DNA from: Oceanispirochaeta sp.
GTDB taxonomy: Bacteria > Spirochaetota > Spirochaetia > DSM-2461
DNA length: 64,000 nt
Assembly: GCA_963663385.2 (NCBI GenBank)
Contig: CAXXXD010000001.1
Location: forward strand, 64,001-128,000
Reading direction: 5' to 3'
Shown one piece after another: positions 7,801-56,686 of this stretch. The translations under genes and the position numbers were made by a program. The notes beneath the pieces are model-generated. The model searched no databases. It was not told where the DNA came from and saw only the letters and a program-made list of their open reading frames with translations. Each line of letters begins with the position of its first letter. The first letter of the stretch is position 1.

Positions 7801-9099
7801 ATCCACGTGGGGGTCCAGTTCACAGGCGGCTCTGGCATGGGCGCTGATTTCATCCAGAACCACATCGGCATGAATCAGGTTTCCGATAAACTTCCGCCCC
7901 GATCCTGTGGTCGCGCTGCCCAGAACCAGCAGTCGGGTATTTTCTTTCCCGGCAGCAATGGAAACAGCTTCCAGCAGGGCCTGGACCGCTTCCAGAGGCC
8001 TTCCGGCAGTCCTGGTGTAGAAACCGCCCAGAACCTTCCCTTCCGTATCACATACCACCGCCTTGGTGCTGGTAGACCCGATGTCGATACCCATATAGCA
8101 GTCCAGCACTTCCGGCCAGGATTCGAAGAGTTCCACCTCCACAAAGGGCTGGCCGGGCCGTCCCTGAATAGGCTGGTCCCAGCTCAGATAGGATGAAAAA
8201 TCGGGGTAGTCGGATAGTCTAAGAGTCAGGGGAGGATAGAAACAGCTCCTGTCCACCTCTTCCGCTTTATAGAGGGACTCCCCGTCAGAACAGAGGGACA
8301 GCTCTTCATCTGTAACGGACCCCTCCCTTTTCTCATCCAGAAGAGAGAGGGCGGCTCCGATAGCCCCCTGCCAGGGGCCGTCGGGATCGATCAGCAGCTC
8401 GGACCCGATCATGGAAGAAATATGCCGGTAGACAGCTTCATTCAGGGAAACCCCGCCTGTAAACAGAACAGGCCCTTCCAGGTCATCATCCTTAAAAAGG
8501 GTATCAACCAGATTGGCAGCCAGTCCCTGGCAGAGCCCCTCACTGATACCGGGCAGGGAGTATCCCTCCTGCTGAGCATGTATCAGATCCGTCTTGGCAA
8601 ACACGGCGCATCGGGTTGCTACCAGGGGCACGGGATCCCTGTTCTCCAGGGCCGTCCGGCTCAGCTCTGCACTGTTCCCCATATTGAGCCGTCCCGCCTG
8701 CTGATCCAGAAAACTGCCCGTACCGGCAGCGCAGGATGTATTGGTCCGGATGCTTTGATAGTTTCCTTCCCTGTCGAAGCGGATAAGGGAGAACTGCTCT
8801 CCCCCTACCAGAAGGATCGCTCCGGTATGGGGATAACGTTCCTTTACCGAACGGATACAGGCCATCCTGGAATCGTAGCTGCGGTCGTAGATGAGACGGG
8901 TTATATTACGGCCGGTAGCCGCGCAGCCCCTGACCCTGCTCCAGTCCATGCGGGACGATACAGTTACAAGCGCCTCCCGTACATTCCCTTCGTGAGGAAC
9001 ACATTCCCTCTGCAGAATTCTTCCCCCTGAGTCTATCTCGACTGCTGCGAGAGAGACGGATCCGATATCGATTCCCAGTACGGTACTGTTTTCACTCAT
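4846..9099 (-). CDS. Fused double CoA-activase (BcrAD/BadFG ATPase x2) + DUF2229/2-hydroxyacyl-CoA dehydratase-like protein; probable single-chain plasmalogen synthase
   Basis: Two GIDIGS..K/CAAGTGSFL/RC.VF modules; CxxCxxxC; FCAP, KCGPD, GQCIP and FCCAG motifs; 1417 aa. Confidence 0.8.
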   Translation of the reverse strand: MSENSTVLGIDIGSVSLAAVEIDSGGRILQRECVPHEGNVREALVTVSSRMDWSRVRGCAATGRNITRLIYDRSYDSRMACIRSVKERYPHTGAILLVGGEQFSLIRFDREGNYQSIRTNTSCAAGTGSFLDQQAGRLNMGNSAELSRTALENRDPVPLVATRCAVFAKTDLIHAQQEGYSLPGISEGLCQGLAANLVDTLFKDDDLEGPVLFTGGVSLNEAVYRHISSMIGSELLIDPDGPWQGAIGAALSLLDEKREGSVTDEELSLCSDGESLYKAEEVDRSCFYPPLTLRLSDYPDFSSYLSWDQPIQGRPGQPFVEVELFESWPEVLDCYMGIDIGSTSTKAVVCDTEGKVLGGFYTRTAGRPLEAVQALLEAVSIAAGKENTRLLVLGSATTGSGRKFIGNLIHADVVLDEISAHARAACELDPHVDTILEIGGQDAKFTTLKNGRVTLSVMNNVCAAGTGSFLEEQAARMGVSIRDYANLADGVEAPGVSDRCTVFMERDINHLLSEGCSVSEVLAAALHAVRENYLRKVAVENNIGNRVFFQGATARNRSLVAAFEQKLQKPILVSPYCHLTGALGAALTLADNQVRRDNFIGVEFYKKEVPLRREVCKLCGNHCKLTIADLDGRSVAFGFLCGRDYETESYVSKNSSGWDLLKERARVDRELSAGNGEAHQFPAEAPLIGIPDGLYLTEDRIYWEIFFRELGIPVISSRGMTHPIKTGKPYTGAEFCAPISALHGHAVSLLKKCDYLFMPVYLERKRGKNGELRKFCYFTQFASSLIKQIGGEEKVIAPLASTRYSSFQLISELYHALQDVPGLKRSVLQISSALDKAEEFRKMRDLSYRSLYKENKTADDRVDVVLLGRPYSVLPPEMNKGIPGIFGSLGIRVFYQDMLDYDQDSLKAIAPLLKDVPWVYGAKILEAAEITARTPGLYPVLVTSFKCGPDSFITEYVKKILDRHEKPYLILELDEHDSSVGYETRIEAAARSFGNHLSREEGRFDRNYDGINPSYLRELSRHKNLVIPNWDDYAVPLIASVLNNQGYKTWVMEETEETIRQSLKWNNGQCIPMNALVNGFAATLEKYKLKPEDTNLWIPSAEFSCNIKMFPHQVQELFKAYGGGLEKAKVYLGQMTYIDLSPLVTANAYLAYMFSGLIRRIACRIRPYEYNPGQTDRAVAQSLALLGEVFAGKGNKVQAIQEIMQLFEWIPYNRDQRRPKVTLFGDVYVRDNPVMNQDVIHYIEKNGGEVVTMPYHEYTRMTVENYFHRWTREMKFGKLLTLKPLMGALGTMEKWYYRHFEKVLEEPVAQFDENPEAILEKFSVRVDHEGESQDNLLKTWYISRQYPDLSLFIQLNPGFCCAGLVTEAMSKRIREVTGVPVLSITYDGTGGLKNDAIVPYLKYPAAAGKRQDLKKSM

Positions 9100-23248: not shown

Positions 23249-23677
23249 TTAAAACAGAGAGGAAACCGCACTGTAGGGACAGACCTTTATACAGCTGAGG
23301 CACTCTATACACTCTTCCGATTTAAACACAATTTCCATAGTACTGCGGTCAGGGATGGAAAGGGCATTGGTGGGACAGTGGGGAACACAGCTGCCGCACT
23401 GGGCACAGCGGTCCTTATCCCATTGAACTCCCGTATGGGTAGTATTGATACGGATGTCAAACTCTTTTATAAATTCAATACCCTTTGCAATATTCTCTTC
23501 CGTCCCGGTAACGTCCAGCATCAGAAAACCTTCCTCATCCGGGGTAACCTTGGCTCGGAAGATATTTATAATCAGATCATAATCCTTGACCAGGTGGTAG
23601 ACAATGGGCTTTTCCGCTTCGCATTTGGGAAAGTACAGCATCAGTTTCTTGGTAATTCTTCCGTTTCCGCTGCTCAT
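23249..23677 (-). CDS. NIL domain + 2x[4Fe-4S] ferredoxin (homocysteine synthesis partner)
   Basis: KPIVYHLVKDYDLIINIFRAKV; two CxxCxxCxxxCP motifs. Confidence 0.9.
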   Translation of the reverse strand: MSSGNGRITKKLMLYFPKCEAEKPIVYHLVKDYDLIINIFRAKVTPDEEGFLMLDVTGTEENIAKGIEFIKEFDIRINTTHTGVQWDKDRCAQCGSCVPHCPTNALSIPDRSTMEIVFKSEECIECLSCIKVCPYSAVSSLF

Positions 23678-24858
23678 GCATTACCCTCCTTCATGGGTTT
23701 CATCCCCTGCTCGACAGGCAGGGCGGCAATGGGAGAGGAAAGCAGGAATTTCCCGTCCCGGATCTCTTCCTTCAGAATAGCCGCTATTTTCCGGGCCCCC
23801 GCATAAGAGGAGAGTCCTCCCGTTTCAACCTTCTTTCCATTCAATTCGATCTGACCGGACTTTAAATCCTCATAGTTCACGGTACCCACCACATTACCGT
23901 TCCGTTCGGGGTAATCCTTTGAATAATCAATAACCTGGGCCATAATGTCCCGATCCCGGATGGTCGTCTGCAGGAGCATCTGTTCATCCAGGATGGGGAT
24001 GGGGATGCCCACTCCCAGTGAAAGGGATACGCCGTACCCCTTGAAGCTCACTCCCCTTACAAATTCGGATCGCATCTTTTTCATATCCCCCGTCAGGGCC
24101 AGAGTTCCCGCTCCTTCCGAGGGGACCCCCATAACACCCCGTTCGCATGTCGGACAGTGCTGGGTCCCTTCCGAATAGACATGCCCCTGAGCTCCGGCCA
24201 GCCAGACCCGGGTTCCCACACCGATGGTCCTGTAGAAAGGATCATTCAGAAGGGGAGAGAGCTGCCCGGCACTGGAGTAGCCGCAGTTTTTCATATTAGC
24301 CTTGAGATACCCCAGATAGGTATGAATGGGTTTATCTGAAGTATTAATAGCTACATTATAGTTCTGATAACAGTTGCGGGGGTTTACCATAACCGCCTGA
24401 TTCAAATCGTCAATGGTAAAAGTGGTTCTAAGTTCTTTCCGGGGGTACTCATCCGTTCCGTAGGAAAGGGCGAACAGCTGAACTTCTTCACCGGCGACCA
24501 GTTTTTCAATAACATGCCCGCCGCCGAACCTGAATTCCCCGGGGTAGTCCGTATTGGCCGGATCATTTGCCCGCAGCTGGGTGGCTCCCATATACAGGTC
24601 AACCGCGGCGATCCCGGAATAGGCCAGTACATCATCCAGCCAGGCCTCGGTTATCCGCATCTTCGGCTTGCTGTGTCCGAAGTTCAGGAAACAGCCGGAG
24701 GAACACATGGGACCGAATGTGGCGGTTGTCACGACATCCACCTCTCTGGCAGCCTGTTCCACCCCTTTTTTATCTACATAATCAATAACTTCCTCAGCCG
24801 TCAGAACAACGGCCTTTCCGGAGCTGATTTTTTCATTAATCTGTTCAACCGTCTTCAT
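23674..24858 (-). CDS. Homocysteine biosynthesis protein, DUF39 (L-aspartate semialdehyde sulfurtransferase), without CBS domains
   Basis: KTVEQINEKI, VDVVTTATFGPMCSSG, GGGHVIE, PRNCYQNY and GQLSPLLNDP motifs. Confidence 0.88.
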   Translation of the reverse strand: MKTVEQINEKISSGKAVVLTAEEVIDYVDKKGVEQAAREVDVVTTATFGPMCSSGCFLNFGHSKPKMRITEAWLDDVLAYSGIAAVDLYMGATQLRANDPANTDYPGEFRFGGGHVIEKLVAGEEVQLFALSYGTDEYPRKELRTTFTIDDLNQAVMVNPRNCYQNYNVAINTSDKPIHTYLGYLKANMKNCGYSSAGQLSPLLNDPFYRTIGVGTRVWLAGAQGHVYSEGTQHCPTCERGVMGVPSEGAGTLALTGDMKKMRSEFVRGVSFKGYGVSLSLGVGIPIPILDEQMLLQTTIRDRDIMAQVIDYSKDYPERNGNVVGTVNYEDLKSGQIELNGKKVETGGLSSYAGARKIAAILKEEIRDGKFLLSSPIAALPVEQGMKPMKEGNA

Positions 24859-25046: not shown

Positions 25047-25805
25047 TCAGGGAACTGTATAACCCTCCAGAGGCAGATCTTCCGTCCGGATCAGTCCGGC
25101 TTCAAGCTGCCTGATAATCCCCATGGCATCGCTCAGGGACCGGATAACAACATCCGCCAGCATCTCACCCAGCAGGGTATGTTTTCCGCAGAAGTGTATT
25201 TCCGGACCGTATCCGGAAAAAATCAGGATGGAATCCGTTCCGGTCCCGCTGGCCCTGCGGCCGGAAACGGGGCTTATCACATCAAAGTCCAGAAGGGTCC
25301 AGGCCCGGGATTCCGCAGCCAGCATCAAAGCTTCCGCCATAGCGGATTCACTTAAGGACGCATTGGTTCCCACAACCATATTGATTGTCCCCGAACCGGC
25401 CTGATGAGCTTCCAGTTCCAGGCAGTCCGCCGGATCTCCCGCCGCCCGGGCGTTTGTTGTTCCCACAGTCATACCGCAGAAAGCATACAGTTCGGATTCC
25501 TGCCTCAGACGCCAGCGGAAACTTTTCATGGAGGCGGAGGTCATCATCCCTGCCAGGGGCTTCCCCAGCCCCAGTTCGCACGCTTTTTCTTCAAGCGTTA
25601 TTTCCGGTGGTTCAAATCCGCCGTATTCATCTGCCGTATTGTGATCCACCAGCAGATTCAACAGGGATTTATGCTTACAGCGCCCTCCGCCGTACAGGGC
25701 GGAAGAGAGGGTTTCGACCGGCTCCTCCCATTCCAGGCAGACACAGCTTTTGTCATGAATCACCTTCATATTGAGAGATCCCATACTGATATTAAAGCTA
25801 CTCAC
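25047..25805 (-). CDS. cbiZ: Adenosylcobinamide amidohydrolase
   Basis: LSSALYGGG, GMMTSA, TVGTTNA, GTINM, ASGTGTDS and CGKHTLLGE motifs. Probable GTG start at 25805 after GGAAGG, overlapping the ATPase stop. Confidence 0.85.
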   Translation of the reverse strand: MSSFNISMGSLNMKVIHDKSCVCLEWEEPVETLSSALYGGGRCKHKSLLNLLVDHNTADEYGGFEPPEITLEEKACELGLGKPLAGMMTSASMKSFRWRLRQESELYAFCGMTVGTTNARAAGDPADCLELEAHQAGSGTINMVVGTNASLSESAMAEALMLAAESRAWTLLDFDVISPVSGRRASGTGTDSILIFSGYGPEIHFCGKHTLLGEMLADVVIRSLSDAMGIIRQLEAGLIRTEDLPLEGYTVP

Positions 25806-26610
25806 TGACAGACCTTCCCGTTTTTTTTCTGCCGGGGCCCAGAATGGGCAGCCCCTCCGGCCAGGGGGGAGTATAGTAGGCCATTTCCGTACCATAAACC
25901 TGACGGACCCGATCGGGGGTCAGTATGTCCTTAACCCTGCCGGCTCCCGCACAAATCCCGTCTTTCATCATAATCACCTTATCCCCATGCAGAAGGGCCT
26001 GGTTCACATCATGCAGAATGGCAATTACCGTTTTACCCCGGCTTGCCTGTTCCCGCAGCAACCGGAGAAGGGTTTCCTGATGGCAGAGATCCAGATGATT
26101 GGCCGGTTCATCCAGCAGAAGAACCTGCGGGTCCTGCAGAAGAACCCGGGCCAGGAGCACCCTCTGATACTCACCGCCGCTCAAACTGTCAACTGGTCTG
26201 TGACGGAACTCCGTAAGATCCGACTCCGCCAGAATATCATCCAGCCTCCTATGGCTGTCTTTCCCTTTCCTTCCGTAAAAACCTTCATGCCTGTAAGCTC
26301 CCATCCGGACAACATCTTCCACAGAAAATCCAAAGGGGGTTTCATTCAGCTGCGGCACAAGCCCCACAAGGGAAGCCCGCTCCCTGTCGTTTACGGAGGA
26401 GATCTTCCGGCCATGGATACGGATCGATCCTTTCTCAGCCTTAAGCCGTCCCCGGATAAGAGAGAACAGGGTGGACTTCCCCGAACCGTTAGGCCCCAGA
26501 ATGGCCGTAAACTCGCCCTTATTCATTGCCAGATCCTTAAGCGAGATCCGGAATCCTCCGGGATAGGAAAAACTCAGATTTTCAAGTTCGACACTCTTCT
26601 GACCATCCAT
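25798..26610 (-). CDS. btuD: Cobalamin ABC transporter ATPase (BtuD/FecE family)
   Basis: GPNGSGKST, LSGGEYQR and LDEPANHLD motifs; B12 riboswitch context. Confidence 0.85.
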   Translation of the reverse strand: MDGQKSVELENLSFSYPGGFRISLKDLAMNKGEFTAILGPNGSGKSTLFSLIRGRLKAEKGSIRIHGRKISSVNDRERASLVGLVPQLNETPFGFSVEDVVRMGAYRHEGFYGRKGKDSHRRLDDILAESDLTEFRHRPVDSLSGGEYQRVLLARVLLQDPQVLLLDEPANHLDLCHQETLLRLLREQASRGKTVIAILHDVNQALLHGDKVIMMKDGICAGAGRVKDILTPDRVRQVYGTEMAYYTPPWPEGLPILGPGRKKTGRSVSE

Positions 26611-27638
26611 CAGGGAAGCCTCCTGGATTTAACATACTGCTTCAGCAGATAGAGAAAGAAAGGCCCCCCCATCAGGGCGGTAATAACACCCACCGGGATC
26701 TCTGTGGGAGCCATAAGGCTCCGGGCCACCAGATCGGATAGGATCATCAGGATCGCACCGGCCGGTAGGGAGAGGCTCATAACCCGGCGGTTTTCCGAAC
26801 CCGCCACAAAACGGACCATATGGGGGACCAGAAGTCCTGTAAACCCGATGATCCCGGAAAAAGAAACGATAGCCGATGTAATGATACAGGCGATTACCAA
26901 TAGGAGAAGCCCCTCTTTTTCCGGGTTGATCCCCAGAGAGTGGGCTTCTTCGCTTCCCATGGCCAGCAGATTAAGCTCCCGGCTCTTAAACAGCAGATAG
27001 CTGACTGTCGGGAAAAGAACGATTATAAGGATTGTTATCCTGAGCCAGTCCGCGCTGCCGAAACTGCCCATCATCCAGAAGATGATCCGCTCCGCCCGGT
27101 CCCGGTGGAGCATCATCAGAAAGGAGACCCCTGCCTGGGCGATATTACTGAAGGCTATCCCCGCCAGCAGAAGGCTCCCTACATTCCCCCGGGAGCGACC
27201 GGCCACAGCCATGATAAACACCATGGTCACCAGACCTCCCGCAAAAGCAGATACGGTTACTCCCAGAACCGGAAAGAACAGCACCGGCAGATTAAGCAGA
27301 AAGAACAGGGCGGCCCCGAAGGAGGCTCCCGATGAGATCCCCAGCAGATAGGGTTCCGCCATGGGGTTCCGGAAAATCCCCTGAAAAACCACACCCGATA
27401 CGGCCAGTCCCGCTCCGGCCAGACCGGCATAGATGACACGGGGAAGGCGGATCTTCATCAGGATGGTGCGGTGGGAATCACTCAGGCCGGATTCCCCCAG
27501 ACTGCCTATAAAGCGGAGAATATCCCGCGGGGCTATGGAGACGGCTCCAATGGAAGCGGCCAGGGGAATCAGCGCAGCCAGGATCAGCAGGAGAAGAGGC
27601 ATAATCCATGTGCGGTTCGACGGATTACTGCTATTCAC
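26610..27638 (-). CDS. btuC: Cobalamin ABC permease (BtuC/FecCD family)
   Basis: IRLPR, FRNPMAEPYLLGISSGA, GIIGFTGLLVPH and EIPVG motifs; probable GTG start at 27638. Confidence 0.85.
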   Translation of the reverse strand: MNSSNPSNRTWIMPLLLLILAALIPLAASIGAVSIAPRDILRFIGSLGESGLSDSHRTILMKIRLPRVIYAGLAGAGLAVSGVVFQGIFRNPMAEPYLLGISSGASFGAALFFLLNLPVLFFPVLGVTVSAFAGGLVTMVFIMAVAGRSRGNVGSLLLAGIAFSNIAQAGVSFLMMLHRDRAERIIFWMMGSFGSADWLRITILIIVLFPTVSYLLFKSRELNLLAMGSEEAHSLGINPEKEGLLLLVIACIITSAIVSFSGIIGFTGLLVPHMVRFVAGSENRRVMSLSLPAGAILMILSDLVARSLMAPTEIPVGVITALMGGPFFLYLLKQYVKSRRLP

Positions 27639-28605
27639 GGATACCTTCGAACAGGAGAGCCAGGGTTTCAAGTCCATCAATCAGACGGGGCCCCTGACGG
27701 ACAAGCATATTTTCATCCAGCTCATAGATCCGCCCCTCCTGCACGGCCCGCAGATCTTTATAAAGGGAAAGAGAGGTAAAGGATTCTTTCTTTCCCAGAC
27801 CCAGAAAGATAATATCAGGATCCCGTTCAACCAGTATTTCTTTTGAAAAGGACCAGCCCTCTTCGGTTGCGATATTCTCGCCCCCGGCCATGGCAATCAT
27901 ACTGTCTATAAAAGTCCCGGCCCCGGCGGTCCAGTCTCCCCCGTCTCCGAAACCAAGGGCATAATAGACGGCAGGCCTGTTATCCCGGCCTTGCACAGAC
28001 AAAAGGACCCTGTCCTTTCTCTCCATCACATCAGTCATCAGAGCCTCGGCCCTGCTTTCGGCATTCAGCAGCACACCGCAGCCCAGGATAACATCCCCCA
28101 GACCGCTGAAATCCTCAGGGCCATAGAGAAGAGCCACGGGGATTCCCATTTTTTCCAGAGTTTGAACGGTTTCCTCCGACACATGAGTCGATGCCAGGAC
28201 AAGGTCCGGTTCCATGTTGATAATCGTTTCGATATTGGGTTCCATCAGCGTTCCGACCGAGGGGACAGAAAGGGCCGCCGGGGGAAAATTGCAGAAATCG
28301 GTCCGGCCGATCAGCAGGTCTCCCCGGTTCAGGGCATAGACGGTTTCGGTCAGATTCGGCCCCAGGGAAACAACCTTTTCCGGGTAGGCAGACAGTATAA
28401 TCTCCCGTCCTTTGGAATCCTTCAAGACAATGGAACCACTAGGTTTTCCAGAAGAAGAAAGATCTGTCGTCCCATCCGGTCCATCCTCAAAAACTTTGAC
28501 TGGTGGACTATCATTCCCGGATTTTTCCGGTTGTCCGGATGAAAAAGCAAATCCATTAAGGGAAAAGATCAGGAGTATGATTAAAAATCGAAAACGGCCT
28601 GTCAT
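27631..28605 (-). CDS. btuF: Cobalamin ABC substrate-binding protein (BtuF family)
   Basis: VVSLGPNLTETVYAL, GRTDFCNFP, PNIETI and RQGPRL motifs; lies downstream of the riboswitch. Confidence 0.85.
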   Translation of the reverse strand: MTGRFRFLIILLIFSLNGFAFSSGQPEKSGNDSPPVKVFEDGPDGTTDLSSSGKPSGSIVLKDSKGREIILSAYPEKVVSLGPNLTETVYALNRGDLLIGRTDFCNFPPAALSVPSVGTLMEPNIETIINMEPDLVLASTHVSEETVQTLEKMGIPVALLYGPEDFSGLGDVILGCGVLLNAESRAEALMTDVMERKDRVLLSVQGRDNRPAVYYALGFGDGGDWTAGAGTFIDSMIAMAGGENIATEEGWSFSKEILVERDPDIIFLGLGKKESFTSLSLYKDLRAVQEGRIYELDENMLVRQGPRLIDGLETLALLFEGIRE

Positions 28606-28641
28606 AAGTATATACCTCGTATACTGAATTCAGATAATTTT

Positions 28642-28797
28642 TCATAACAGGCAGGTTTTCTGGCTTACAGATCAGCAGCTGATTCCCCCTTCCCGGTTTC
28701 CCAGTGGCGAAAGGCATAAATACCCCGGAAACAGCTTCCCTGATTACAGCGGCGGGACCGCAGAGGCATCTCACCTCACTTCCCTATCCTGTATGAT
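28642..28797 (-). ncRNA. Cobalamin riboswitch controlling btuFCD-cbiZ
   Basis: Minus strand AGGGAAgtgaGGTGagAtgCCtctGCGGtcCCgCCGCTGTAA...GCCACTGggaaaCCGGGAAGG...AAGCCAGaaaACCTGCC. Confidence 0.9.
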
Positions 28798-28963
28798 GGA
28801 TTCTATGAAAATAAAGGGATACACTCTTTCCTGTCAATATTGTAATTCCATCATTCCCGAAAGATATAGTCATGCCCCAGGCTGAGTAATAATTTACAAA
28901 ATATCACCAAATAATTCATAGATAATCCCTTGAAGAGAGGCTTACAATACGAAATTACTTAAA

Positions 28964-29098
28964 CAATATTTCAGAGGAAGTCAGGTGAGAAACCTGCACG
29001 GACCCGCCACTGTAAGGGCGTGACGCTTTCCGCATAACCACTGGAACAATCCGGGAAGGGCGGAGGAGTAGACCCCGAGTCAGGAAACTCTGGTATTG
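28964..29098 (+). ncRNA. Cobalamin riboswitch controlling the lipoprotein/TonB-receptor operon
   Basis: GAGGAAgtcaGGTGagAaaCCtgcACGGacCCgCCACTGTAA...ACCACTGgaacaatCCGGGAAGG...GAGTCAGGaaACTCTG. Downstream CTTCC(29170-29174)/GGAAG(29183-29187) could sequester the RBS. Confidence 0.85.
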
Positions 29099-29192
29099 AA
29101 AAATTATTCAGGCTTCGCGGATTAAGCCGGGATATGCGTGCCCTCAAAGAGTACTGCCTGTCCTGTCTGCTTCCGGCCTAAAGGAAGAAAAA

Positions 29193-29684
29193 ATGAAAGA
29201 ATTGAAAAAGTGGATTGTTCTGCTTGCCGCCCTGTTCGTACTTTCAGGAATGATGTCCTGTGAGATGTTTGAATCAGATGATGAAGAAACCATCGAAGTT
29301 AAGGGAGAGTGGGATACGGGTTATGGTTCAATTATCATAACAGATTCAACTATCTCATGGTATGGGACAGATGGAACTCTCAGCTATGCGTACGATATTG
29401 AAAGCTTCAGCAATGACTCCTGGAACGGATCAGAAACAGGAGAAGGTGATTACGGTTATATGGTTATCAAATATACAACTGCACCAACCTGGAATGACAG
29501 CGTTAACGGATTATATAACATTTTTCGATGGCAGAACCTTAATAGTTCAGGATCACCAGCAAGCTTCGAGTATGGAGAAGCTTATCTGGATGGAACCTAC
29601 CATGAAAGTGCAAGCGAGTCAAAAAATACAGCAACATCATCTAATGGCTATTATTGGTTTTCCTCTGCTACAAAAGTTGATTAA
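29193..29684 (+). CDS. Hypothetical lipoprotein, first gene under the B12 riboswitch
   Basis: Signal peptide ending in GMMSC; aromatic-rich, probably beta-rich; no family recognised. Confidence 0.75.
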   Translation: MKELKKWIVLLAALFVLSGMMSCEMFESDDEETIEVKGEWDTGYGSIIITDSTISWYGTDGTLSYAYDIESFSNDSWNGSETGEGDYGYMVIKYTTAPTWNDSVNGLYNIFRWQNLNSSGSPASFEYGEAYLDGTYHESASESKNTATSSNGYYWFSSATKVD

Positions 29685-30641
29685 ATGATTGAAAAATCCA
29701 TTAAAACAGCCCTGCTCGTCCTGACGACAGGGCTGTTTTTTTTAATAAGCAGCTGTTCAAACGATTCGTCTCCGGCATCGCCCTATAGTCCTGATACCCC
29801 GGACACCTCTGAGGATAATGATAAAACATGGGAAGAGGTCTTATCGGAGGATCCCTCCTACCCTCCCAATGTGTACCTTACAGAATTTGTCGAATGGTCC
29901 CCGGGACAGGTTGGCAGCTCACGGATGGGAACCGAATATACCGATGCAGAGGGTTATCCTCTGGAATCAGGTACGGTGAATGCCTTTGGTCCCCCTGAAG
30001 GCGGAGGATCCTATACCGGGGGCGATGGATTAACCTGCCCCATCGGGATAGACGGTTGGGCCGTGTGGAAGTTCAACCCGGACTATATCATTGTAAACGG
30101 AGAAGGGGCCGATTTTACCACCTTTACAAAGACCTGGGCCTGGAGCAGCAAGGCCGACGGTCTGTGCTGCGAACTGGCACGCGTGGAAGTGTCCGAAGAC
30201 GGTACGGTATGGTACGAAATGGATTCCGCCCTGATCCGATATGACGAAAACCCCATCCCTGCAGAAAGCAACGGCAGCTACATCTATACCAATGTGCAGG
30301 GACTGCACGGCAATGCTCCCACCTGGGCCAATTTCCGCAGGGATATGCCGGCGGAAGAGCTGCAGACAGTCGACGGGGTTTTAAAGTGGGTGGAAACGGA
30401 AGAGACCGTCAGCCGTTACTTTACGGCTGGAGACACAAATCTGGGAGGGATTTCCTTTGATCTGTCCGATTTTCACCTGAAAGGGGATCCCGCAGAAAGC
30501 TGGCCTGCCGATGGGAAAATGAGATATCTTAAGATAATAGACGACAGCTCCATCCTGGACGGACAGGACTATGCCAGAGAGTGGGCTTTGGGGGCCAATC
30601 TGATGGCTGCCATGGGGCTCCATACCGCTCCGGCCGAGTGA
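29685..30641 (+). CDS. Cell-surface lipoprotein, BtuH-like (putative B12-binding)
   Basis: Lipobox LISSC; EWSPGQ, GIDGWAVWKF..IVNGEGADF, ELARVEVSEDG..WY, GGISFDLSD and RYLKIID resemble the Bacteroidetes BtuH-type domain. Confidence 0.6.
   Translation: MIEKSIKTALLVLTTGLFFLISSCSNDSSPASPYSPDTPDTSEDNDKTWEEVLSEDPSYPPNVYLTEFVEWSPGQVGSSRMGTEYTDAEGYPLESGTVNAFGPPEGGGSYTGGDGLTCPIGIDGWAVWKFNPDYIIVNGEGADFTTFTKTWAWSSKADGLCCELARVEVSEDGTVWYEMDSALIRYDENPIPAESNGSYIYTNVQGLHGNAPTWANFRRDMPAEELQTVDGVLKWVETEETVSRYFTAGDTNLGGISFDLSDFHLKGDPAESWPADGKMRYLKIIDDSSILDGQDYAREWALGANLMAAMGLHTAPAE
29703..29743 (+). terminator. Intrinsic terminator-like hairpin inside the 5' end of the BtuH-like gene
   Basis: aaaacagccctg(29703-29714) pairs with cagggctgtttt(29728-29739); T8 run at 29736-29743. 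Confidence 0.6.
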
Positions 30642-30645
30642 TAAT

Positions 30646-32604
30646 ATGAAATATGTAAAAAGAACAATACTTTCCATTCTGATCCTGCCCGCTCTCCTTA
30701 TTTCGGAGGATCTGAATATGCAGGACCTGGACACAATTTATATTACAGAGGATCGGCCTGAAACAGAAACCGGCGCCGGTCAGAAAACCGTTATTGAAAA
30801 AGAGACATGGGAGAGGAAGGGCGCACGGACTGTCGCGGAAGCAGTACACCTGACCCCCGGGGTAACGGTCAGCCGCTCCGGCACGACCCTGGACAACTCA
30901 ACCGTCAGCATCCGGGGCGCCGGTGGAGAACAGGTGCTTGTCATGATTAATGGGATCCCTCTCAATAACGGAAAAGGGGACCCGGTCAATCTCAGCACCC
31001 TCTCTTTAAACAATATTACAGAAATTGAGATTATCCGGGGCGGCAACAGCGCCGTTTACGGTGAGGGGGCCTTCGGAGGTGTTATCAATCTGATACAGAC
31101 CGAAGAACCCGTTTACTACTCCGAAGGAGATATTTACGCTTCTGCCGGATCCTTCCAGACCTATACCGGGGGCGGATCCTTCAAACTACCCCTCAGCTTA
31201 TCGGGAAACCTGACGGCAGACCTGGCCGGAGAGTATCGCCGGACAGAAGGGGAGTTCGATTACGAATCCCGGGACGGCAGTCTCAGCCGGAGAAACAGTC
31301 AGGGCTGGGCCGATAATATCAGCAGCGGGCTGGACTGGAATGCGGGAGGTCTGGACCGGCATAAGGCATCCTTCGATTTCAAATGGTATGAGGGAGAGAG
31401 GGGAATCCCGGGACTGATGGAATTCCTCACCCCCGATGCCCGGCTGGCAGACTCCCGCCTGAGCCTCTCTACCCGGTACCGCTTCAAAGGCTACGCCGGA
31501 CAGACTCTGGATGCGGAGTACTCTCTGATCCGGCAGACCTCCTGTTTTTCCAGCGAGGAAGAATCCGTAGATGACAAACATGAAAACCTGTCCCATAGAG
31601 GCCGTCTTGACCTCAGCTATAAAAAAGAAACGGGGAGCTGGTCATTTACCCCTTTACTGGGAGGGGTCTGTTCCTATGACAGTATGACCTCCACCAGCCT
31701 GATGAGCAGCAACGGAACAACCCTTCCGGGAGAAGCGAATCAGACAGGAGGTTCCCTGTATGGGCGACTGGAATTCTCCGGTAAAAATATAACTATTACC
31801 CCGGCGGGCCGCTGGGATTTCAGCCGGACCGAATATGCGGGCTGGGATGACAGTGAGGACGACAAGGCGTCCTGGTCTTTAACTACCGTTTACAGCCTTC
31901 CGTCGTTTAAGGATAAAATCAGTCTGAAAGGGAATACGGGAACCGCTTATCACAGCCCTGGCTTTGACGACCTCTTCTGGAGCGGCGGTTCCTTTGCAGA
32001 GGGAAATCCGGATCTGCTGCCCGAAGAGAGCTTTAACTGGGATGCAGGCCTGTACCTTACCCCGCTGACAGGTCTGGAGATTTCGACCGTTTACTTTCAG
32101 AGCTATACGGAGAACCTGATCCAGTGGCTGCCCACCGCAGGTGGAACCTGGCGACCCTCCAATATCGGCCGGGCGGAGGGATCAGGCCTGGAGAACAGCC
32201 TTTCCTGGCTGATCCCCCTGAAAGAGAAAGATCTTATATTCATGGAGCTTTCCGGAAGCTACAGCTGGATGAATATGATTGATAAAACGGCAGATTCGAT
32301 CAATACCGGAAACCGGCTGCCCTACAGGCCTCTTCACAGCGCCTCCGGATCCTGCTCCCTTACCAGAGACAGCCACAGCCTGACGTTCAGCGGCCGTTAT
32401 ATGGGACAGCGCTTTACCAATATGGCCAATACCAAAGATCTGGATCCGGTTCTTACCTTTGATACAGTTCTGAAACTGGTATTTGATTCGGGCTTTTACA
32501 GCTCCTTCTCCCTGCTGAATATGGGAGATATCCAGTACATTGACAAACTGGGCTACCCCATCCCCGGACGGGAGTGGTCCCTGAAAGGAGGCTACCGCTT
32601 TTGA
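30646..32604 (+). CDS. TonB-dependent outer-membrane receptor, BtuB-like
   Basis: LDTIYIT (TonB-box-like); plug SIRGAGGEQVLVMING..IEIIRGGNSAVYG...GGVINL; NPDLLPE; C-terminal PGREWSLKGGYRF. Confidence 0.9.
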   Translation: MKYVKRTILSILILPALLISEDLNMQDLDTIYITEDRPETETGAGQKTVIEKETWERKGARTVAEAVHLTPGVTVSRSGTTLDNSTVSIRGAGGEQVLVMINGIPLNNGKGDPVNLSTLSLNNITEIEIIRGGNSAVYGEGAFGGVINLIQTEEPVYYSEGDIYASAGSFQTYTGGGSFKLPLSLSGNLTADLAGEYRRTEGEFDYESRDGSLSRRNSQGWADNISSGLDWNAGGLDRHKASFDFKWYEGERGIPGLMEFLTPDARLADSRLSLSTRYRFKGYAGQTLDAEYSLIRQTSCFSSEEESVDDKHENLSHRGRLDLSYKKETGSWSFTPLLGGVCSYDSMTSTSLMSSNGTTLPGEANQTGGSLYGRLEFSGKNITITPAGRWDFSRTEYAGWDDSEDDKASWSLTTVYSLPSFKDKISLKGNTGTAYHSPGFDDLFWSGGSFAEGNPDLLPEESFNWDAGLYLTPLTGLEISTVYFQSYTENLIQWLPTAGGTWRPSNIGRAEGSGLENSLSWLIPLKEKDLIFMELSGSYSWMNMIDKTADSINTGNRLPYRPLHSASGSCSLTRDSHSLTFSGRYMGQRFTNMANTKDLDPVLTFDTVLKLVFDSGFYSSFSLLNMGDIQYIDKLGYPIPGREWSLKGGYRF

Positions 32605-33980
32605 AAAGAGTCAGCCCTGTACACACAACATTAGTCCTTTTATCTCTGCTGTTTTTTTCCTGTGAAGAGGAGATAAAAACCGACTATCAGAGCTTTATGG
32701 ACAAGGATTACCCTTCGGCTCTCTTGGTTCTGAATGGAGAGGCCGAGACCATCAGCGCCTACAGTGCAGAGGATGACAAGGTATATAAAAACCTGCAGCT
32801 GGTGGGGCACAACGGTACAAGCGAAGCCTGGCCGGCTGATATGGTACAGTCCGGGGACAGCCTCTATGTGGTCTGTTCGGGACAGAATTCCATAGAGAAG
32901 TATAACGCAGAGACTCTGGATTATGAGGGAGAGATCTACCTGAAAAACGGGTATAACCCCATGACCCTCTGTTTACTGGAAAACGGGACAAAAGCCGCTG
33001 TAGCCGGATATGAATCGGATGAGATTGTTGTGGTGGATCTTGCCGCCATGACCAGGCTCTCCGGCTATATACCGTCCTTTGAGGAAATTGCTCTACCGGC
33101 GGGAAGTCACCGGGAGAGCCGGATATCTGAAAGTGACAAAAATGCTGTAGGAGAGAATCACAGCAGAGGGACAACCGGCCTGGCCGTTTCCGGAACTGTT
33201 CTGTATGCGGGGAATGTCCGTTACGACAGCAGTATCCTCCTGACGGATTCAAACGGAAACCTGATTAGCTACGAAGGCTCTGATGCCAGGGCCGCCGGAT
33301 ATTTCCGGGAAGGGACCCTCAGCGTTTTCCAGCTGGGAGACAACTTTGCCTCCGCCTCCCTTATCCGCGAAATCAACCTGCAGGAACAGTTCGAAACTCT
33401 GGGAGGCACCCCCTACTTCCCCGGTGACGGCCTGAACCCCCAGTCCCTCTTTGTTCTGGAGGGGAAATTGCATATTATCTGCACGGGAACCAACGGCGGT
33501 TCGGCACGAACCTACACCTCCGGCGAATATATCCCGAATGGGTATAGCGAGGGAAATATCGTCCCGGGAACCGATCCGGATGACGGGGTTGTTCTTGTCA
33601 TGGACCTGACAGATCCCCTGAATCCCGGCCTTGAAAAAATCATCTCTATAGGCGGTTCCCCCTCGGGATTCCGGGATTCTGCAGATACGGCGGGAAAAGT
33701 CCTCTACCTGGCGGGAGTGGGCGGAATCCAGTCCTATAACTATGCAGCGGAAACAGTACTCAGAGGATCGGACAATACCATTCTGGCCGGCAGCGATCCT
33801 TCGACGGACTTCTACTCCCATGTTCTCTACAGTTCAGGACGACTCTATGTTTCGGATTACACCCATGACAAACTGAATATTCTGATTGTTTCGGATAACG
33901 GTACGAATTACAGTTATGAACTGGCGGAATCCCATACCATAGGAGATGGACCGGGGGCTTTGACGGTTATGACGCGGTAG
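32601..33980 (+). CDS. Beta-propeller lipoprotein, YncE/BtuG-like
   Basis: TTG start at 32601 after AGGAGG; lipobox FFSC; repeated blades LYVVCSG, LYAGN, LHIICTG, LYLAG, LYVSDY; C-terminal GDGP. Confidence 0.65.
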   Translation: MKRVSPVHTTLVLLSLLFFSCEEEIKTDYQSFMDKDYPSALLVLNGEAETISAYSAEDDKVYKNLQLVGHNGTSEAWPADMVQSGDSLYVVCSGQNSIEKYNAETLDYEGEIYLKNGYNPMTLCLLENGTKAAVAGYESDEIVVVDLAAMTRLSGYIPSFEEIALPAGSHRESRISESDKNAVGENHSRGTTGLAVSGTVLYAGNVRYDSSILLTDSNGNLISYEGSDARAAGYFREGTLSVFQLGDNFASASLIREINLQEQFETLGGTPYFPGDGLNPQSLFVLEGKLHIICTGTNGGSARTYTSGEYIPNGYSEGNIVPGTDPDDGVVLVMDLTDPLNPGLEKIISIGGSPSGFRDSADTAGKVLYLAGVGGIQSYNYAAETVLRGSDNTILAGSDPSTDFYSHVLYSSGRLYVSDYTHDKLNILIVSDNGTNYSYELAESHTIGDGPGALTVMTR

Positions 33981-33996
33981 AGAGTTTAAAAACCAA

Positions 33997-34203
33997 ACCT
34001 CCCCTTTCACCTCCTCAGGAGGGGGATAATCTCCTGTGTCCCCTTTTCTCAGGAGGGGAATAGTCCGTTTTGCCTGTTTATACAAAGGAGAAAATGAAAA
34101 CTATGACTCCCCTCCAACCCCACTCAATCTCCCCGGAGGGGAGACGTCAATTCGGTTTCCCTCCCTTGGAGGGATTAAGGGAGGCCGAGGGGTTGGGGGA
34201 GGT
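33997..34203. repeat. Composite REP-like cluster between the convergent BtuG-like and tonB genes
   Basis: acctcccctttcacctcctcaggaggggga resembles 4633; contains the 70-bp unit at 34118-34187; right end ggggttgggggaggt. Confidence 0.75.
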
Positions 34204-34226
34204 CTGGATTAGGTGAGGATTAGCCC

Positions 34227-34964
34227 TTAAATCAACCGGAAAGAAAAAGTCTTCCAGACCTGGACAGATTCTTCCCTCCGGGGGAAACGCCACCCTTTTT
34301 TCACCGTATTGAGAACAGCTTTATCCAGGAGCTCATGACCGGAACTCTTTTCAAGGATAAGGGATTCCACTTTCCCCTTTTTGTTTATCACGAAAGAAAC
34401 GGTAACATCCCCTTCCCACTCCATCCGCTTTGCCTGAGAGGGGTAGGAGGGAGGAGGCATTTGAGCCCTGCCGGAAAAATCCAGGGAATCCAGCTTCTGA
34501 CCTGTAAACCCGGCAGACTCGACAGGTTCGTATTCCTGTGAGACAAATTCTTCTCCCTGTCGGGTAGGGTCGATTCCGGACTCTGCAAACCCGTCGTTCT
34601 GCAGAACAGGTGCATTTTCAGCCATAACCGGTTCGCGTCCCTGTTCATCAGCTTTGATTTCGTCTACAACAGGACCTCTATCTGATTCGACAGGTTTGTC
34701 ATTCTGCGGGGCGGTCTCCACTTTCTGTATGGCCGGTACCGGAATCTGTGGCGCCGGGAGGTCTTCACTGATCCTCTCCGGCCCGATTGTTTCTGGTTCC
34801 CCTATAACCGGAGGGGCCGCAAGAGAAACTGAGAGAACCGGCAGGGACTCAACTGCTTCCAGAAAGGAAAACTTCAAATTCCTGTCCAGAACGAACAGGG
34901 CAATGCTGTGGAGGAGAACGGAGAGTATAAGGGCATTTTTAAAGATTTTATTCCGGGTATGCAA
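34227..34964 (-). CDS. tonB: Energy transducer TonB
   Basis: N-terminal TM with SVLLH; Pro/Glu-rich linker; PSYPSQAKRMEWEGDVTVSFVI...SSGHELLDKA...WRF. Confidence 0.88.
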   Translation of the reverse strand: MHTRNKIFKNALILSVLLHSIALFVLDRNLKFSFLEAVESLPVLSVSLAAPPVIGEPETIGPERISEDLPAPQIPVPAIQKVETAPQNDKPVESDRGPVVDEIKADEQGREPVMAENAPVLQNDGFAESGIDPTRQGEEFVSQEYEPVESAGFTGQKLDSLDFSGRAQMPPPSYPSQAKRMEWEGDVTVSFVINKKGKVESLILEKSSGHELLDKAVLNTVKKGWRFPRREESVQVWKTFSFRLI

Positions 34965-35085: not shown

Positions 35086-35724
35086 ATGAAGAGACGTCCT
35101 TTCTTTTTCCTGTTTATTCTATTCTGCCTGATTCAGCCGCTGACCGCCCATCCCCATATGATGCTCACCAGCCGCTGTGCCCTTCACTTTGAAAACGACC
35201 TTATCAAGGGGATTAAACTGGAATGGGAATTCGATAAGTTCTTCAGTGCGGATATCCGTTTCTCTTTTGATGCTGATAAAAACGGGACTTACGATAAAGA
35301 CGAAACAAATGAAGTGTACAAGTTCGCCTTCAGCAATCTGGAAAAATACAATTACTTTACCTTTTTCCGTGAAAAGGATCACCGTTTTACTCCGGACAGG
35401 GTTGAGGATTTCAGTGTCTGGAATATAGACGATGAAACAGTAGCCTACAGCTTCTACATTCCCCTGAACAACTTTACAGGAAATGAATTGAATATTGCCG
35501 TTTATGACTACAGCTTTTTCTGCAATGTCAGCTATGACGAGAAAAATCCCGTTGTCCTGGACATGACCGGCTGCACGGTTAGCCCGGAGTTCAAACTGGC
35601 CGAGAACAGGGACTACCCCGTTTATTACGATCCCTTTGCCCCGGCATCGGATCTTTCTCTCCATGACAAGTGGCGTCCCGGACTGGAGACATTCTACCCG
35701 ACGGAGATTCAGATTGAATTCTGA
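35086..35724 (+). CDS. DUF1007 family periplasmic protein
   Basis: Signal peptide followed by AHPH; WEFDKFFS; VYDYSFF. Confidence 0.8.
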   Translation: MKRRPFFFLFILFCLIQPLTAHPHMMLTSRCALHFENDLIKGIKLEWEFDKFFSADIRFSFDADKNGTYDKDETNEVYKFAFSNLEKYNYFTFFREKDHRFTPDRVEDFSVWNIDDETVAYSFYIPLNNFTGNELNIAVYDYSFFCNVSYDEKNPVVLDMTGCTVSPEFKLAENRDYPVYYDPFAPASDLSLHDKWRPGLETFYPTEIQIEF

Positions 35725-36604
35725 TCTGTATAGAAAGCTGATCCTTATCGGCTTTATCATTCTGCTCCCCGGACTGTACATCGGAGCCAATCCTTTTCTG
35801 GGTTCTGCCGAAGAGCCGGCGGCACAGGCAGCCAGCTCCGGTCCCACACCGGAAGGACTGGCTGAAAAACAGCTGGACTTGAGGAACCGGATGGGCGACA
35901 TCCTGATATCCCTTAAAGAGGGACACTCTACCCGTTTGCTGATGGTATTGTACGCACTCTCCTTTCTTTACGGAGGGCTTCATGCTTCCGGTCCGGGGCA
36001 CAGGAAAACCATAGTATTCTCCCTTTTTCTCAGCCGGGAGGCAAGAATATGGGAACCCCTGGGATTCGGTTTTCTTCTGGCCCTGCTCCATGGAGGAAGC
36101 GCGGTTCTGCTGATCCTTTTCTATAAGTCTACAGCAGGTCCCCTGCTTTCCCGGAATCTCAATGCGGCCACACTGCAGATGGAGGGCTGGGCTTATACAC
36201 TCCTTCTGGCACTCTCCCTCTTCCTGCTGGCAGGAGCGGTCCGTCATGCCGTAAAGGGACACAGTCACAGGGAGTCAGAAAAACGCTCTCTGATGGCTAT
36301 TGCCCTTACAGGATTTTTCCCCTGTCCGGGAGCAATTATGATTCTGATTTTCACCCTGACCCAGGATCTTCTGGGCATGGGAGTAACAACAGTCCTTATC
36401 ATGTCCGCCGGGATGGCCCTCCCCATCAGCCTGGCCGGCTACCTGGCGTACTTCGGGAAAAAAGGTGTTTTTACGGCGTTAAAAAACAGGGAAAAACTAC
36501 TGCATAAGACTGCTACCGGAATGGAAATGGCCGGATACTCTTTCCTGCTGGTTTTTTCATTTGTAATGGCTCTTCCCTTTTTAAGAGGGATGATACAGGT
36601 TTAA
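35714..36604 (+). CDS. Nickel/cobalt transporter (NiCoT/RcnA-like)
   Basis: YGGLHASGPGHRKT, HSH and GFFPCPGA motifs; probable TTG start at 35714. Confidence 0.82.
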   Translation: MNSDLYRKLILIGFIILLPGLYIGANPFLGSAEEPAAQAASSGPTPEGLAEKQLDLRNRMGDILISLKEGHSTRLLMVLYALSFLYGGLHASGPGHRKTIVFSLFLSREARIWEPLGFGFLLALLHGGSAVLLILFYKSTAGPLLSRNLNAATLQMEGWAYTLLLALSLFLLAGAVRHAVKGHSHRESEKRSLMAIALTGFFPCPGAIMILIFTLTQDLLGMGVTTVLIMSAGMALPISLAGYLAYFGKKGVFTALKNREKLLHKTATGMEMAGYSFLLVFSFVMALPFLRGMIQV

Positions 36605-52168: not shown

Positions 52169-52825
52169 TCATTTCCCCTGGCCGTAATGATTCCTGGCAA
52201 AATCCTGCATGGCGCGAATGTCTTCTTCCGAGATAAGCTTGGGAGTCCCGATAGCTCTGGCCATATAGTAGATCCGTGCGGATTTCTCCACTACAAAGAT
52301 ATTTTTCATGGCACCGGGGAAATCCGCTCCGACCACAACGGTCCCGTGATTGGGAATCATAACGGCATTTCTTTCGCCCAGGCCTTTAACGACATTCTCT
52401 GCCAGTTCGGGCGTTCCGGGCAGAGCATAGTCACAGTTGATAATCTTATCGCCGATGATCTGTACAAAATCTTCACTTATCCCGGGAAGATCTTCGTTGA
52501 GAACTCCGAAAACACTGGAATAGACCGGATGGGTATGAATAACGACATTCACATCCTTTCGGGCATTCATAATTGCAATATGAAAATTGAACTCGATTGA
52601 AGGTTTTCTATGACCGTCAACGACTTCGAAGTCCGAGTTCATTACAACAACATCCTCTTCCTTTATATCCGGGTAGGGCATTCCGCTCGGCTTGATATAA
52701 ATCAGGCCGGTTTCGGGATCTCGTGTACTGAGGTTCCCCCAGGTCCCTACGGTAAGTCCCTGATCAAGCATATTCATACCGGCATCAACAATTTCTTTTT
52801 TCAACGCTCTGGAAATTTTCGGCAT
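52169..52825 (-). CDS. Class II aldolase (FucA-like); likely methylthioribulose-1-P/5-deoxyribulose-1-P aldolase
   Basis: GTWGNLS, KPSG, PSIE..FH, HTHP and NHG motifs; divergent from the mtnA operon. Confidence 0.8.
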   Translation of the reverse strand: MPKISRALKKEIVDAGMNMLDQGLTVGTWGNLSTRDPETGLIYIKPSGMPYPDIKEEDVVVMNSDFEVVDGHRKPSIEFNFHIAIMNARKDVNVVIHTHPVYSSVFGVLNEDLPGISEDFVQIIGDKIINCDYALPGTPELAENVVKGLGERNAVMIPNHGTVVVGADFPGAMKNIFVVEKSARIYYMARAIGTPKLISEEDIRAMQDFARNHYGQGK

Positions 52826-52936
52826 TGTATTTCTCCTTGGTCTTTTATATCCAATACATTTATAAGAATTTTATCCTGCCTCTGTAACAGGCAAAGAGAA
52901 CAATTCTTCTCTAAATAGTAATAATACCCTCTTCCC

Positions 52937-52957
52937 TTCCTGTCAACCTGACAGGAA
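52937..52957. promoter_or_regulatory. Perfect palindrome, probable operator
   Basis: TTCCTGTCA-ACC-TGACAGGAA; contains a minus-strand TTGACA facing the aldolase gene. Confidence 0.6.
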
Positions 52958-53053
52958 ACCCATATCTGATTTATCCAACATAAATTAATAAAACCATGAT
53001 TTTAGCAAATATTATTTGACAACACAAACATTCAGTTATAACCTGAGCAATAT

Positions 53054-53863: not shown

Positions 53864-53872
53864 GAGGTAGTG

Positions 53873-56682: not shown

Positions 56683-56686
56683 AGTT

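Follow-up and report, generated by a model that had tools for sequence, protein, structure and literature searches.

Bacteroides species acquire vitamin B12 through a relay of proteins. As set out in PMC10404256 and PMC13616437, BtuH and BtuJ capture the vitamin, BtuG receives it in its role as a lid, the lid hands it to the receptor BtuB, and the transporter BtuFCD completes the import. Here we analyse a locus in a spirochaete that resembles this relay. It lies at positions 25047 to 34964 of a 64,000-nucleotide stretch of Oceanispirochaeta sp. DNA (contig CAXXXD010000001.1, positions 64,001 to 128,000), the whole of which we call the window. On one strand, behind a cobalamin riboswitch, are the genes for a TonB-dependent receptor and three lipoproteins, referred to as lipoA, lipoB and prop; on the other strand, behind a second riboswitch, are btuF, btuC, btuD and cbiZ. 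The receptor cassette is conserved as a B12-regulated unit, and its genes are not neighbours by chance. Taken as a whole, the locus is reasonably likely to be a B12-scavenging system, with a BtuB-type receptor, a BtuG-like lid, a tethered binder like BtuH1, BtuFCD and CbiZ.

The receptor complexes BtuB2G2, BtuB3G3 and BtuB1G1 of Bacteroides thetaiotaomicron (8BMX, 8P97 and 8BLW) share with this locus a B12-riboswitch operon in which a BtuB-type receptor lies beside a propeller lipoprotein. The BtuH domain occurs there in several settings. BtuH2, the protein in structure 7BIZ, consists of two PKD domains and a B12-binding domain (PMC8941943), and its residues that contact B12 and Na/Ca-phosphate have been described (PMC8941943; PMC13616437). 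They include Tyr510, Trp511, Trp577, His476, Asn399, Glu406, Asp522, Ser582 and Glu584. BtuH1 is the B12-binding domain alone (PMC13616437), and BtuG1 ends in a C-terminal extension of about 250 residues that is homologous to BtuH2 (PMC10404256). How widely are these proteins distributed? A BlastP survey of 313 gut genomes at 1e-10 described BtuG homologues as 'exclusively found among the Bacteroidetes' (PMC6143338), a statement also made in the discussion of PMC10404256, and BtuH homologues are reported in 37 gut Bacteroidota (PMC13616437). DUF4465, the family of BtuJ, is reported in Spirochaetota too (PMC13398666).

The spirochaete locus consists of the following features, in order along the window.

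25047-25895, minus strand: cbiZ, adenosylcobinamide amidohydrolase (PF01955, 143.7 bits against a cut-off of 27, profile positions 3-190 of 191); last gene of its operon
25798-26610, minus strand: btuD-like ATP-binding cassette (ABC) ATPase (Pfam ABC_tran, 108.5 bits)
26610-27680, minus strand: btuC-like permease of the FecCD family (Pfam FecCD, 294.4 bits)
27631-28605, minus strand: btuF-like periplasmic binding protein (Pfam Peripla_BP_2, 100.9 bits); first gene after the minus-strand riboswitch
28633-28844, minus strand: cobalamin riboswitch aptamer (RF00174, 79.0 bits, E-value (E) 8.2e-18, model positions 1-189 of 189), preceding btuF-btuC-btuD-cbiZ
28932-29110, plus strand: cobalamin riboswitch aptamer (RF00174, 79.8 bits, E 5e-18, model positions 1-189 of 189), preceding lipoA-lipoB-receptor-prop
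29193-29684, plus strand: lipoA, an orphan lipoprotein of 163 amino acids (signal peptide, lipobox GMMSC)
29685-30641, plus strand: lipoB, a lipoprotein of 318 amino acids (lipobox LISSC) with a predicted BtuH-domain-like fold (AlphaFold2 model and Foldseek)
30646-32604, plus strand: BtuB-like TonB-dependent receptor of 652 amino acids (Pfam Plug, 88.1 bits; signal peptide without lipobox)
32574-33980, plus strand: prop, a beta-propeller lipoprotein of 468 amino acids (lipobox LFFSC) with a predicted BtuG-like fold (AlphaFold2 model and Foldseek)
34227-34964, minus strand: tonB, convergent with the receptor operon (Pfam PF03544 TonB_C, 69.9 bits, cut-off 24.6; TIGR01352, 61.1, cut-off 27.1)

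An Rfam scan of the 64 kb window returns two matches in all, the two full-length RF00174 aptamers, which stand back to back. Both exceed the RF00174 gathering score of 31.5 bits and, since they are the sole two matches in the window, their scores lie far above chance. The btuF start codon follows the end of the minus-strand aptamer by 27 nucleotides. On the other side, lipoA, lipoB, the receptor gene and prop are tightly packed: they abut, lie 4 nucleotides apart or overlap by 31 nucleotides. We assigned the genes by Pfam and NCBIfam scans of the translated open reading frames (ORFs). A preliminary description of this DNA had named two opposed riboswitches, four genes on the plus strand, btuF-C-D-cbiZ and a convergent tonB; together the Rfam, Pfam and NCBIfam scans place every one of these where it had put them.

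The receptor's best relatives point to B12. In a search of PDB sequences its top matches are the B. thetaiotaomicron receptors BtuB2 (8bmx_C, 1.3e-17), BtuB3 (8p97_A/8p98_A) and BtuB1 (8blw_A, 2.9e-15). E. coli BtuB ranks next, at about 1e-13; siderophore receptors rank below the BtuB proteins and align through the plug alone. The NCBIfam BtuB equivalog models give scores far below their cut-offs (TIGR01779, 128.2 against 599.7; NF007926, 116.1 against 836), so by curated standards the protein is a generic TonB-dependent receptor. Given that its best PDB relatives are BtuB proteins and that a B12 riboswitch precedes it, the sensible reading is that its substrate is a corrinoid. The TonB translation has the hydrophobic N-terminal segment that would anchor it as well as the C-terminal domain typical of TonB. 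The receptor and prop frames share 31 nucleotides at 32574-32604, and the conserved start of prop ('RRIPIL'-like) may reflect constraint by the receptor's conserved C-terminus in the other frame; for this reason the true start of prop is uncertain. One relative of prop, P0022, is an 810-residue protein in which a TonB_dep_Rec domain is joined to prop; it may be a fusion or a gene-calling artefact.

The minus-strand genes form an ordinary operon for corrinoid import and salvage behind RF00174, with nothing unusual about it. It matches known btuFCD-cbiZ operons in composition: a periplasmic binding protein, a FecCD permease, an ATPase and CbiZ after the riboswitch. The btuF-like protein has a signal peptide without a lipobox cysteine and scores 58 bits against the NCBIfam BtuF model, under the cut-off. 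The top NCBIfam models for the permease are both for BtuC (NF007081, 256 bits; NF003001, 227 bits) and both fall under their cut-offs, as do the corrinoid, heme and BtuD ATPase models for the btuD product. The cbiZ product scores 92.7 against the NCBIfam model of bifunctional CbiS, under the cut-off of 250. Because the longest cbiZ frame overlaps btuD, the true start of cbiZ is probably further downstream. Genes for CbiZ are often found beside corrinoid transporters.

Is the receptor cassette more than an accident of this one genome? A word-based search of a protein collection recovered 42 relatives of prop, 38 of lipoB and 6 of lipoA; all those with an organism name come from Spirochaetales, Spirochaetaceae or Oceanispirochaeta. 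Aligning prop against GTDB, with one genome per species, gave nine loci (L001-L009), all in metagenome-assembled genomes (MAGs) of Spirochaetia. A B12 riboswitch lies directly upstream of the cassette in all six loci with enough upstream sequence. Five of the six match RF00174; in L008 the match is to the adenosylcobalamin model RF01482 (58.9 bits, 6328-6480, plus strand). L004 also has a second, divergent riboswitch, like the window. The order lipoA-lipoB-receptor-prop, followed by tblastn and ORF inspection, is kept in L001, L002, L004, L005, L008 and L009 (lipoA of L005, at 6406-6978, was missed by tblastn and found as an ORF). L003 and L006 are truncated and collinear up to their ends, and L007 begins at prop. 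The receptor gene adjoins prop in 8/8 related loci that extend upstream of prop, and lipoB directly precedes the receptor in the window and in seven related loci. Riboswitch, gene order and the conserved lipoboxes described below together establish the cassette as a B12-regulated unit.

The two halves of the locus are often linked. In L005 and L009, btuF-C-D-cbiZ follows prop directly on the same strand, an arrangement that links the cassette with corrinoid transport. Counting genes up to 10 kb from the cassette, btuFCD occurs in L002, L004, L005 and L009, and cbiZ in L004, L005 and L009; tonB is convergent with it in 4/9 loci (L001-L004). L008, from a Thalassospirochaeta MAG, has no btuFCD, cbiZ or tonB within that distance. 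Base composition gives no clear island that would indicate recent horizontal transfer of the locus (G+C content 0.45-0.56, compared with 0.494 in the window).

The preliminary description proposed comparing all three lipoproteins with the folds of BtuG2 and BtuH. For two of them, prop and lipoB, the comparison gave a positive answer. The AlphaFold2 model of prop, built with 37 aligned relatives, is confident (predicted local distance difference test (pLDDT) 91.4, predicted TM-score (pTM) 0.88) and has 27 beta-strands, which fits seven four-stranded blades. We compared it with 350,542 PDB chains using Foldseek. The result is a propeller of the seven-bladed type, like that of BtuG (probability 1.00), a fold that generic propellers match too. 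Ranks 2-14 are mostly chains of BtuG2 (BT1954) and BtuG3 (BT2095), free or with BtuB, together with the BtuG-related structure 3dsm, with E from 8e-12 to 8.5e-11, target TM-scores (TMt) of 0.67-0.75 and 14-16% identity over the structural alignment; BtuG1 also matches (E 1.5e-9). BtuK2 (4r5o_B) is a poorer match to prop than the BtuG chains are (E 1.6e-8, TMt 0.50). The conserved face of prop carries S102-G-Q-N105, N214-V-R-Y-D218, C303-T-G-T-N-G-G309 and G284-x-G-x-N-P-Q290.

The setting of prop is that of BtuG: it is a lipoprotein, it adjoins a btuB homologue and it belongs to a B12-riboswitch operon. In a protein-language-model search its nearest neighbours are Bacteroidota clusters of about 360 amino acids assigned to PF16819/DUF5074 (scores 0.94-0.95). 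According to PMC13398666, propellers of the PF16819 family are encoded next to B12 receptors and DUF4465 proteins. Among Pfam and NCBIfam models, the prop relatives match weak generic propeller models, Beta_propel in 9/37 and YNCE in 3/37. Judging from that account, BtuG itself is probably a member of PF16819. Three things set prop and its locus apart from BtuBG: the locus comes from Spirochaetota, prop has no detectable sequence similarity to BtuG and it is some 100-130 residues longer, about 100 when set beside BtuG2. On its modelled fold and its context, prop is probably a BtuG-like lid.

The model of lipoB (34 relatives; pLDDT 91.2, pTM 0.85) begins with a disordered, acidic, Ser/Pro-rich tether at about residues 24-45, with pLDDT below 50 at 24-38, and continues as one beta-rich globular domain. 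Its best Foldseek match in the PDB is 8blw_B, which is BtuG1 with its BtuH domain (E 9e-6, probability 1.00, query TM-score (TMq) 0.38), and the second is 7biz_A, BtuH2 (E 3.2e-3, probability 0.99, TMq 0.37). The first of these is the one match at E <= 0.001; the remaining matches all have E >= 0.033. Since propeller-only BtuG chains are not among the 50 lipoB matches listed, we infer from the models that the element common to lipoB and 8blw_B is the BtuH domain. Among solved structures, then, the predicted fold of lipoB is closest to the BtuH domain.

Context agrees with that likeness. As with BtuH1 (BT1488), BtuH2 (BT1956) and the C-terminal domain of BtuG1/BtuGH (BT1490), lipoB is associated with a btuB B12 locus; it is a lipoprotein with one beta-rich domain, and its gene comes immediately before that of the receptor. 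The order lipoB-receptor-prop is that of btuH1-btuB1-btuGH in operon 1 of B. thetaiotaomicron (PMC12751083). Unlike BtuH2, lipoB has no PKD domains and carries a disordered tether instead. The accessory lipoproteins BtuJ (DUF4465) and BtuK also occur in B12 loci of Bacteroides; no protein of the window locus matches DUF4465 in Pfam. An assignment of lipoB to DUF4465/BtuJ was rejected, there being neither a Pfam match nor a BtuJ structure among the fold matches listed. Whether lipoB is a BtuH-like binder we regard, on the model, as an even question. Some of its relatives are longer: P0091 (615 amino acids) has two lipoB-like stretches, P0093 has 504 amino acids, and in P0098 a lipoB-like stretch is joined to peptidase S41. 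These may be fusions or gene-calling artefacts.

The third lipoprotein, lipoA, is an orphan. It has no Pfam, NCBIfam or PDB sequence match, either as a single sequence or as a family, and by sequence it has no recognisable relatives outside the clade. Its family alignment conserves G38-x-W40 right after the tether, Y89, W113 and several more aromatic residues. The nearest cluster in the protein-language-model search, from Spirochaetota and automatically named 'lipocalin-like' (0.94), is a lead and no more.

As the preliminary description had it, there are three accessory lipoproteins: the signal peptides of lipoA, lipoB and prop each end in a lipobox cysteine, and that cysteine is aligned in 35/37 prop, 31/34 lipoB and 10/11 lipoA relatives. 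An Asp or Glu falls within positions +1 to +5 of the cysteine in 28/35 prop, 22/31 lipoB and 9/10 lipoA sequences (for example CEEEIK in prop and CEMFESDDEE in lipoA); these residues recall the acidic lipoprotein export signal of Bacteroidota.

How might these parts work together? Judging from the riboswitch family, cobalamin-bound riboswitches would shut off both operons. When B12 is scarce, the cell would make the receptor, the TonB-coupled import unit and the three lipoproteins, with prop and lipoB exposed at the surface, and TonB from the adjacent gene would energise the receptor. In this scheme prop would dock on the receptor and cap it like the BtuG lid, bind a corrinoid on one face of the propeller and pass it to the receptor. 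On its long flexible tether, lipoB would act as a stand-alone B12-binding domain like BtuH1, catching the corrinoid at a distance and feeding it to the receptor complex; lipoA would have an accessory role. BtuFCD would carry the corrinoid from periplasm to cytoplasm. There CbiZ would open cobinamide, or cobamides that do not suit the cell, at the aminopropanol linkage, leaving nucleotide-loop assembly to genes outside the window.

The last step raises the question of substrate. The cassette could have specialised, away from cobalamin, in incomplete corrinoids, of which cobinamide is one, or in non-preferred cobamides, and serve a salvage or remodelling route with CbiZ. The linkage of cbiZ to the cassette in the window, L004, L005 and L009 speaks for such a route, and the more than 1000-fold difference in cobinamide affinity reported between BtuG paralogues (PMC13616437) makes specialisation plausible. 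Against it, cbiZ is not found within 10 kb of the cassette in L001, L002 or L008, no other nucleotide-loop assembly gene turns up in the window (Pfam, 55 ORFs), and substrate preference cannot be read from the sequences. We consider this specialisation rather doubtful; it refines the B12-scavenging explanation and does not exclude it.

Several results weigh against the scavenging explanation itself. Prop and lipoB resemble BtuG and BtuH in fold only, and the residues with which BtuG2 and BtuH2 bind B12 or metal could not be mapped onto them. The rank 1 Foldseek match of prop is an archaeal YVTN propeller (E 5.5e-12), with TMt just 0.37. Near-equal matches include the AztD chain 6n01_A (E 7.7e-11) and 6-phosphogluconolactonases (2e-9 to 7e-9, TMt 0.70-0.73). 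With generic propellers so close behind, the fold by itself leans towards BtuG and falls short of proof. At E <= 10, neither phmmer nor a family hmmsearch against all PDB sequences finds a BtuG chain for prop, and PF16819 matches 0/37 prop relatives at E <= 1, which places prop outside BtuG by sequence homology. For lipoB the TM-scores to BtuH chains are low, 0.37-0.38, with a root-mean-square deviation of about 11 A. Its sequence gives no match to BtuH in the PDB at E <= 10, whether lipoB is used alone, as the family alignment (profile A2) or as a wider profile of 65 sequences (A4), nor does any Pfam family credibly match its relatives; by sequence homology lipoB falls outside BtuH. One A4 match, 2hdw_A (E 0.001), was set aside because it aligned chiefly over the signal-peptide region.

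The gene content and the RNA add to these difficulties. A Pfam scan of the 55 largest non-overlapping ORFs of at least 90 amino acids in the window (12 + 43) found no exbB or exbD and no other gene for cobamide biosynthesis or nucleotide-loop assembly. That exbB and exbD lie outside the window had been anticipated in the preliminary description; its 'complete' capture-import-remodel pathway, on the other hand, was overstated, since CbiZ is the sole remodelling or salvage enzyme present. The expression platform of the plus-strand riboswitch folds without significant structure (z -1.29) and has no clear terminator. A terminator-like hairpin at 29718-29733 falls within lipoB, and such sites number 12, with 12.6 expected from shuffled sequence.

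The wider relatives of lipoB count on the same side. Searching 1.84 billion representative sequences with the A2 profile gave 488 matches at E <= 1e-3, 13 of them at E <= 1e-30. The distant matches share just profile positions of about 98-217, the lipoB core, which occurs in PEP-CTERM, T9SS-sorted (type IX secretion system), PKD, Big_2 and Y_Y_Y proteins and has no Pfam model. By these profile matches lipoB belongs to a large, unannotated superfamily of secreted domains, most of whose proteins have no known link to B12. From the 150 matches listed, 40 were scanned with Pfam and 26 with NCBIfam, and no BtuH could be identified among those scanned. The NCBIfam model NF033170, for the Leptospira lipoprotein LIC_13355, matches 25/26 of the distant matches scanned, all under its cut-off of 120 bits. 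It also weakly matches 18/34 lipoB relatives (best E 1.9e-4); the window lipoB gives no match at E <= 1 and falls outside the family. LIC_13355 is the sole named family with a sequence signal to lipoB, the two sharing the core at about 98-217. The leptospiral protein is reported from the outer-membrane fraction (PMC11891782); work on it has treated it as an adhesin, with no B12 link.

These results fit a different account, in which the lipoproteins bind no corrinoid: they would be clade-specific accessory or assembly factors of the outer membrane, or have some other job co-regulated with B12, and would resemble BtuG and BtuH through generic propeller and jelly-roll likeness. The missing sequence-level link of prop and lipoB to BtuG and BtuH, the huge superfamily around lipoB with no known B12 role and the generic propellers that match prop nearly as well as BtuG all suit this account, and there is precedent in B. 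thetaiotaomicron, where two lipoproteins of B12 loci, BtuL and BtuK2, are reported in PMC12751083 not to bind cobalamin. Yet two neighbouring proteins find, among 350,542 PDB chains, their top folds in the B12-capture lipoproteins of another phylum; the order of genes about the BtuB-like receptor is shared as well, and a riboswitch precedes the cassette in 6/6 assessable loci. We judge the non-binding account unlikely. That prop, lipoB or both face the periplasm from the inner leaflet of the outer membrane and chaperone corrinoid from the receptor to BtuF, as AztD does for AztC, is more improbable still: prop does match the folds of the periplasmic AztD metallochaperones well (6n01_A, E 7.7e-11), and sequence offers no proof of surface exposure, the Bacteroidota export signal not being applicable to spirochaetes, but the TMt of prop to AztD (0.52-0.57) is below that to BtuG (0.67-0.75), the locus already has BtuF as its own periplasmic binding protein, and the long disordered tether of lipoB suits capture by reaching out.

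Other genes of the window lie around the locus. Directly beyond tonB, at 35086-36604 on the plus strand, are a DUF1007 protein (132 bits) and, overlapping it, a NicO-like nickel/cobalt transporter (40 bits); Rfam finds no riboswitch before this pair in the window. The pair also lies beside the cassette in L001 (upstream, on the opposite strand), L003 and L004, and may serve cobalt or nickel uptake, retained in the neighbourhood of the B12 locus. Directly downstream of cbiZ, at 23249-24858 on the minus strand, are a PF01837 HcyBio homocysteine-biosynthesis enzyme (483 bits) and a NIL-domain 4Fe-4S ferredoxin. The HcyBio gene also adjoins the locus in L004, its first 31 residues appear at the edge of L005, and it may have a functional tie to B12-dependent methionine synthesis.

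Two further regions were noted with Pfam. A cluster at 52169-63235 resembles methionine salvage or sulfur amino-acid metabolism together with an energy-coupling factor (ECF)-type transporter: it encodes a class II aldolase, a GntR regulator, an IF-2B family (MtnA-like) protein, a double ABC ATPase and a CbiQ-type T component, then a QueT-like S component, a Cys/Met pyridoxal phosphate (PLP) enzyme, two amidohydrolases, a PNP_UDP_1 phosphorylase and an aminotransferase. At 4846-9099 on the minus strand is a 1417-residue BcrAD_BadFG/DUF2229 protein, an ATPase of the CoA-enzyme-activase type.

What, then, is new here? The receptor half of the locus is like BtuBG and BtuH in fold and context, falls outside both families by sequence, and adds an orphan lipoprotein. 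The preliminary description held that no such system had been described in Spirochaetota. This agrees with a full-text literature search, covering titles and abstracts and leaving most subscription journals uncovered, in which, among the papers listed, no B12 system of BtuG or BtuB with lipoproteins was described for Spirochaetota or Oceanispirochaeta. More tentatively, the locus could represent lipoprotein-capped, relay-type B12 capture outside Bacteroidota, in free-living marine Spirochaetales, either far diverged or independently recruited, with lipoA (possibly lipocalin-like) as a new class of corrinoid-handling protein; we would put this at somewhat less than an even chance.

Should this hold, the BtuH domain would also be a member, with known structure, of a very large LIC_13355-like superfamily of secreted domains that lacks annotation; that would hint that hundreds of surface proteins, so far uncharacterised, have ligand-capture roles. 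Competition for B12 shapes microbial communities, and the BtuBG/BtuH/BtuJ relay is now presented as a speciality of Bacteroidota. A structurally equivalent cassette in marine Spirochaetales, conserved and under riboswitch control, would make the strategy older or convergently evolved. With it would come another group of sequences, highly diverged from the first, from which to work out the requirements of a B12 lid and a B12 catcher, and it would point to a part for spirochaetal surface lipoprotein export in nutrient capture.

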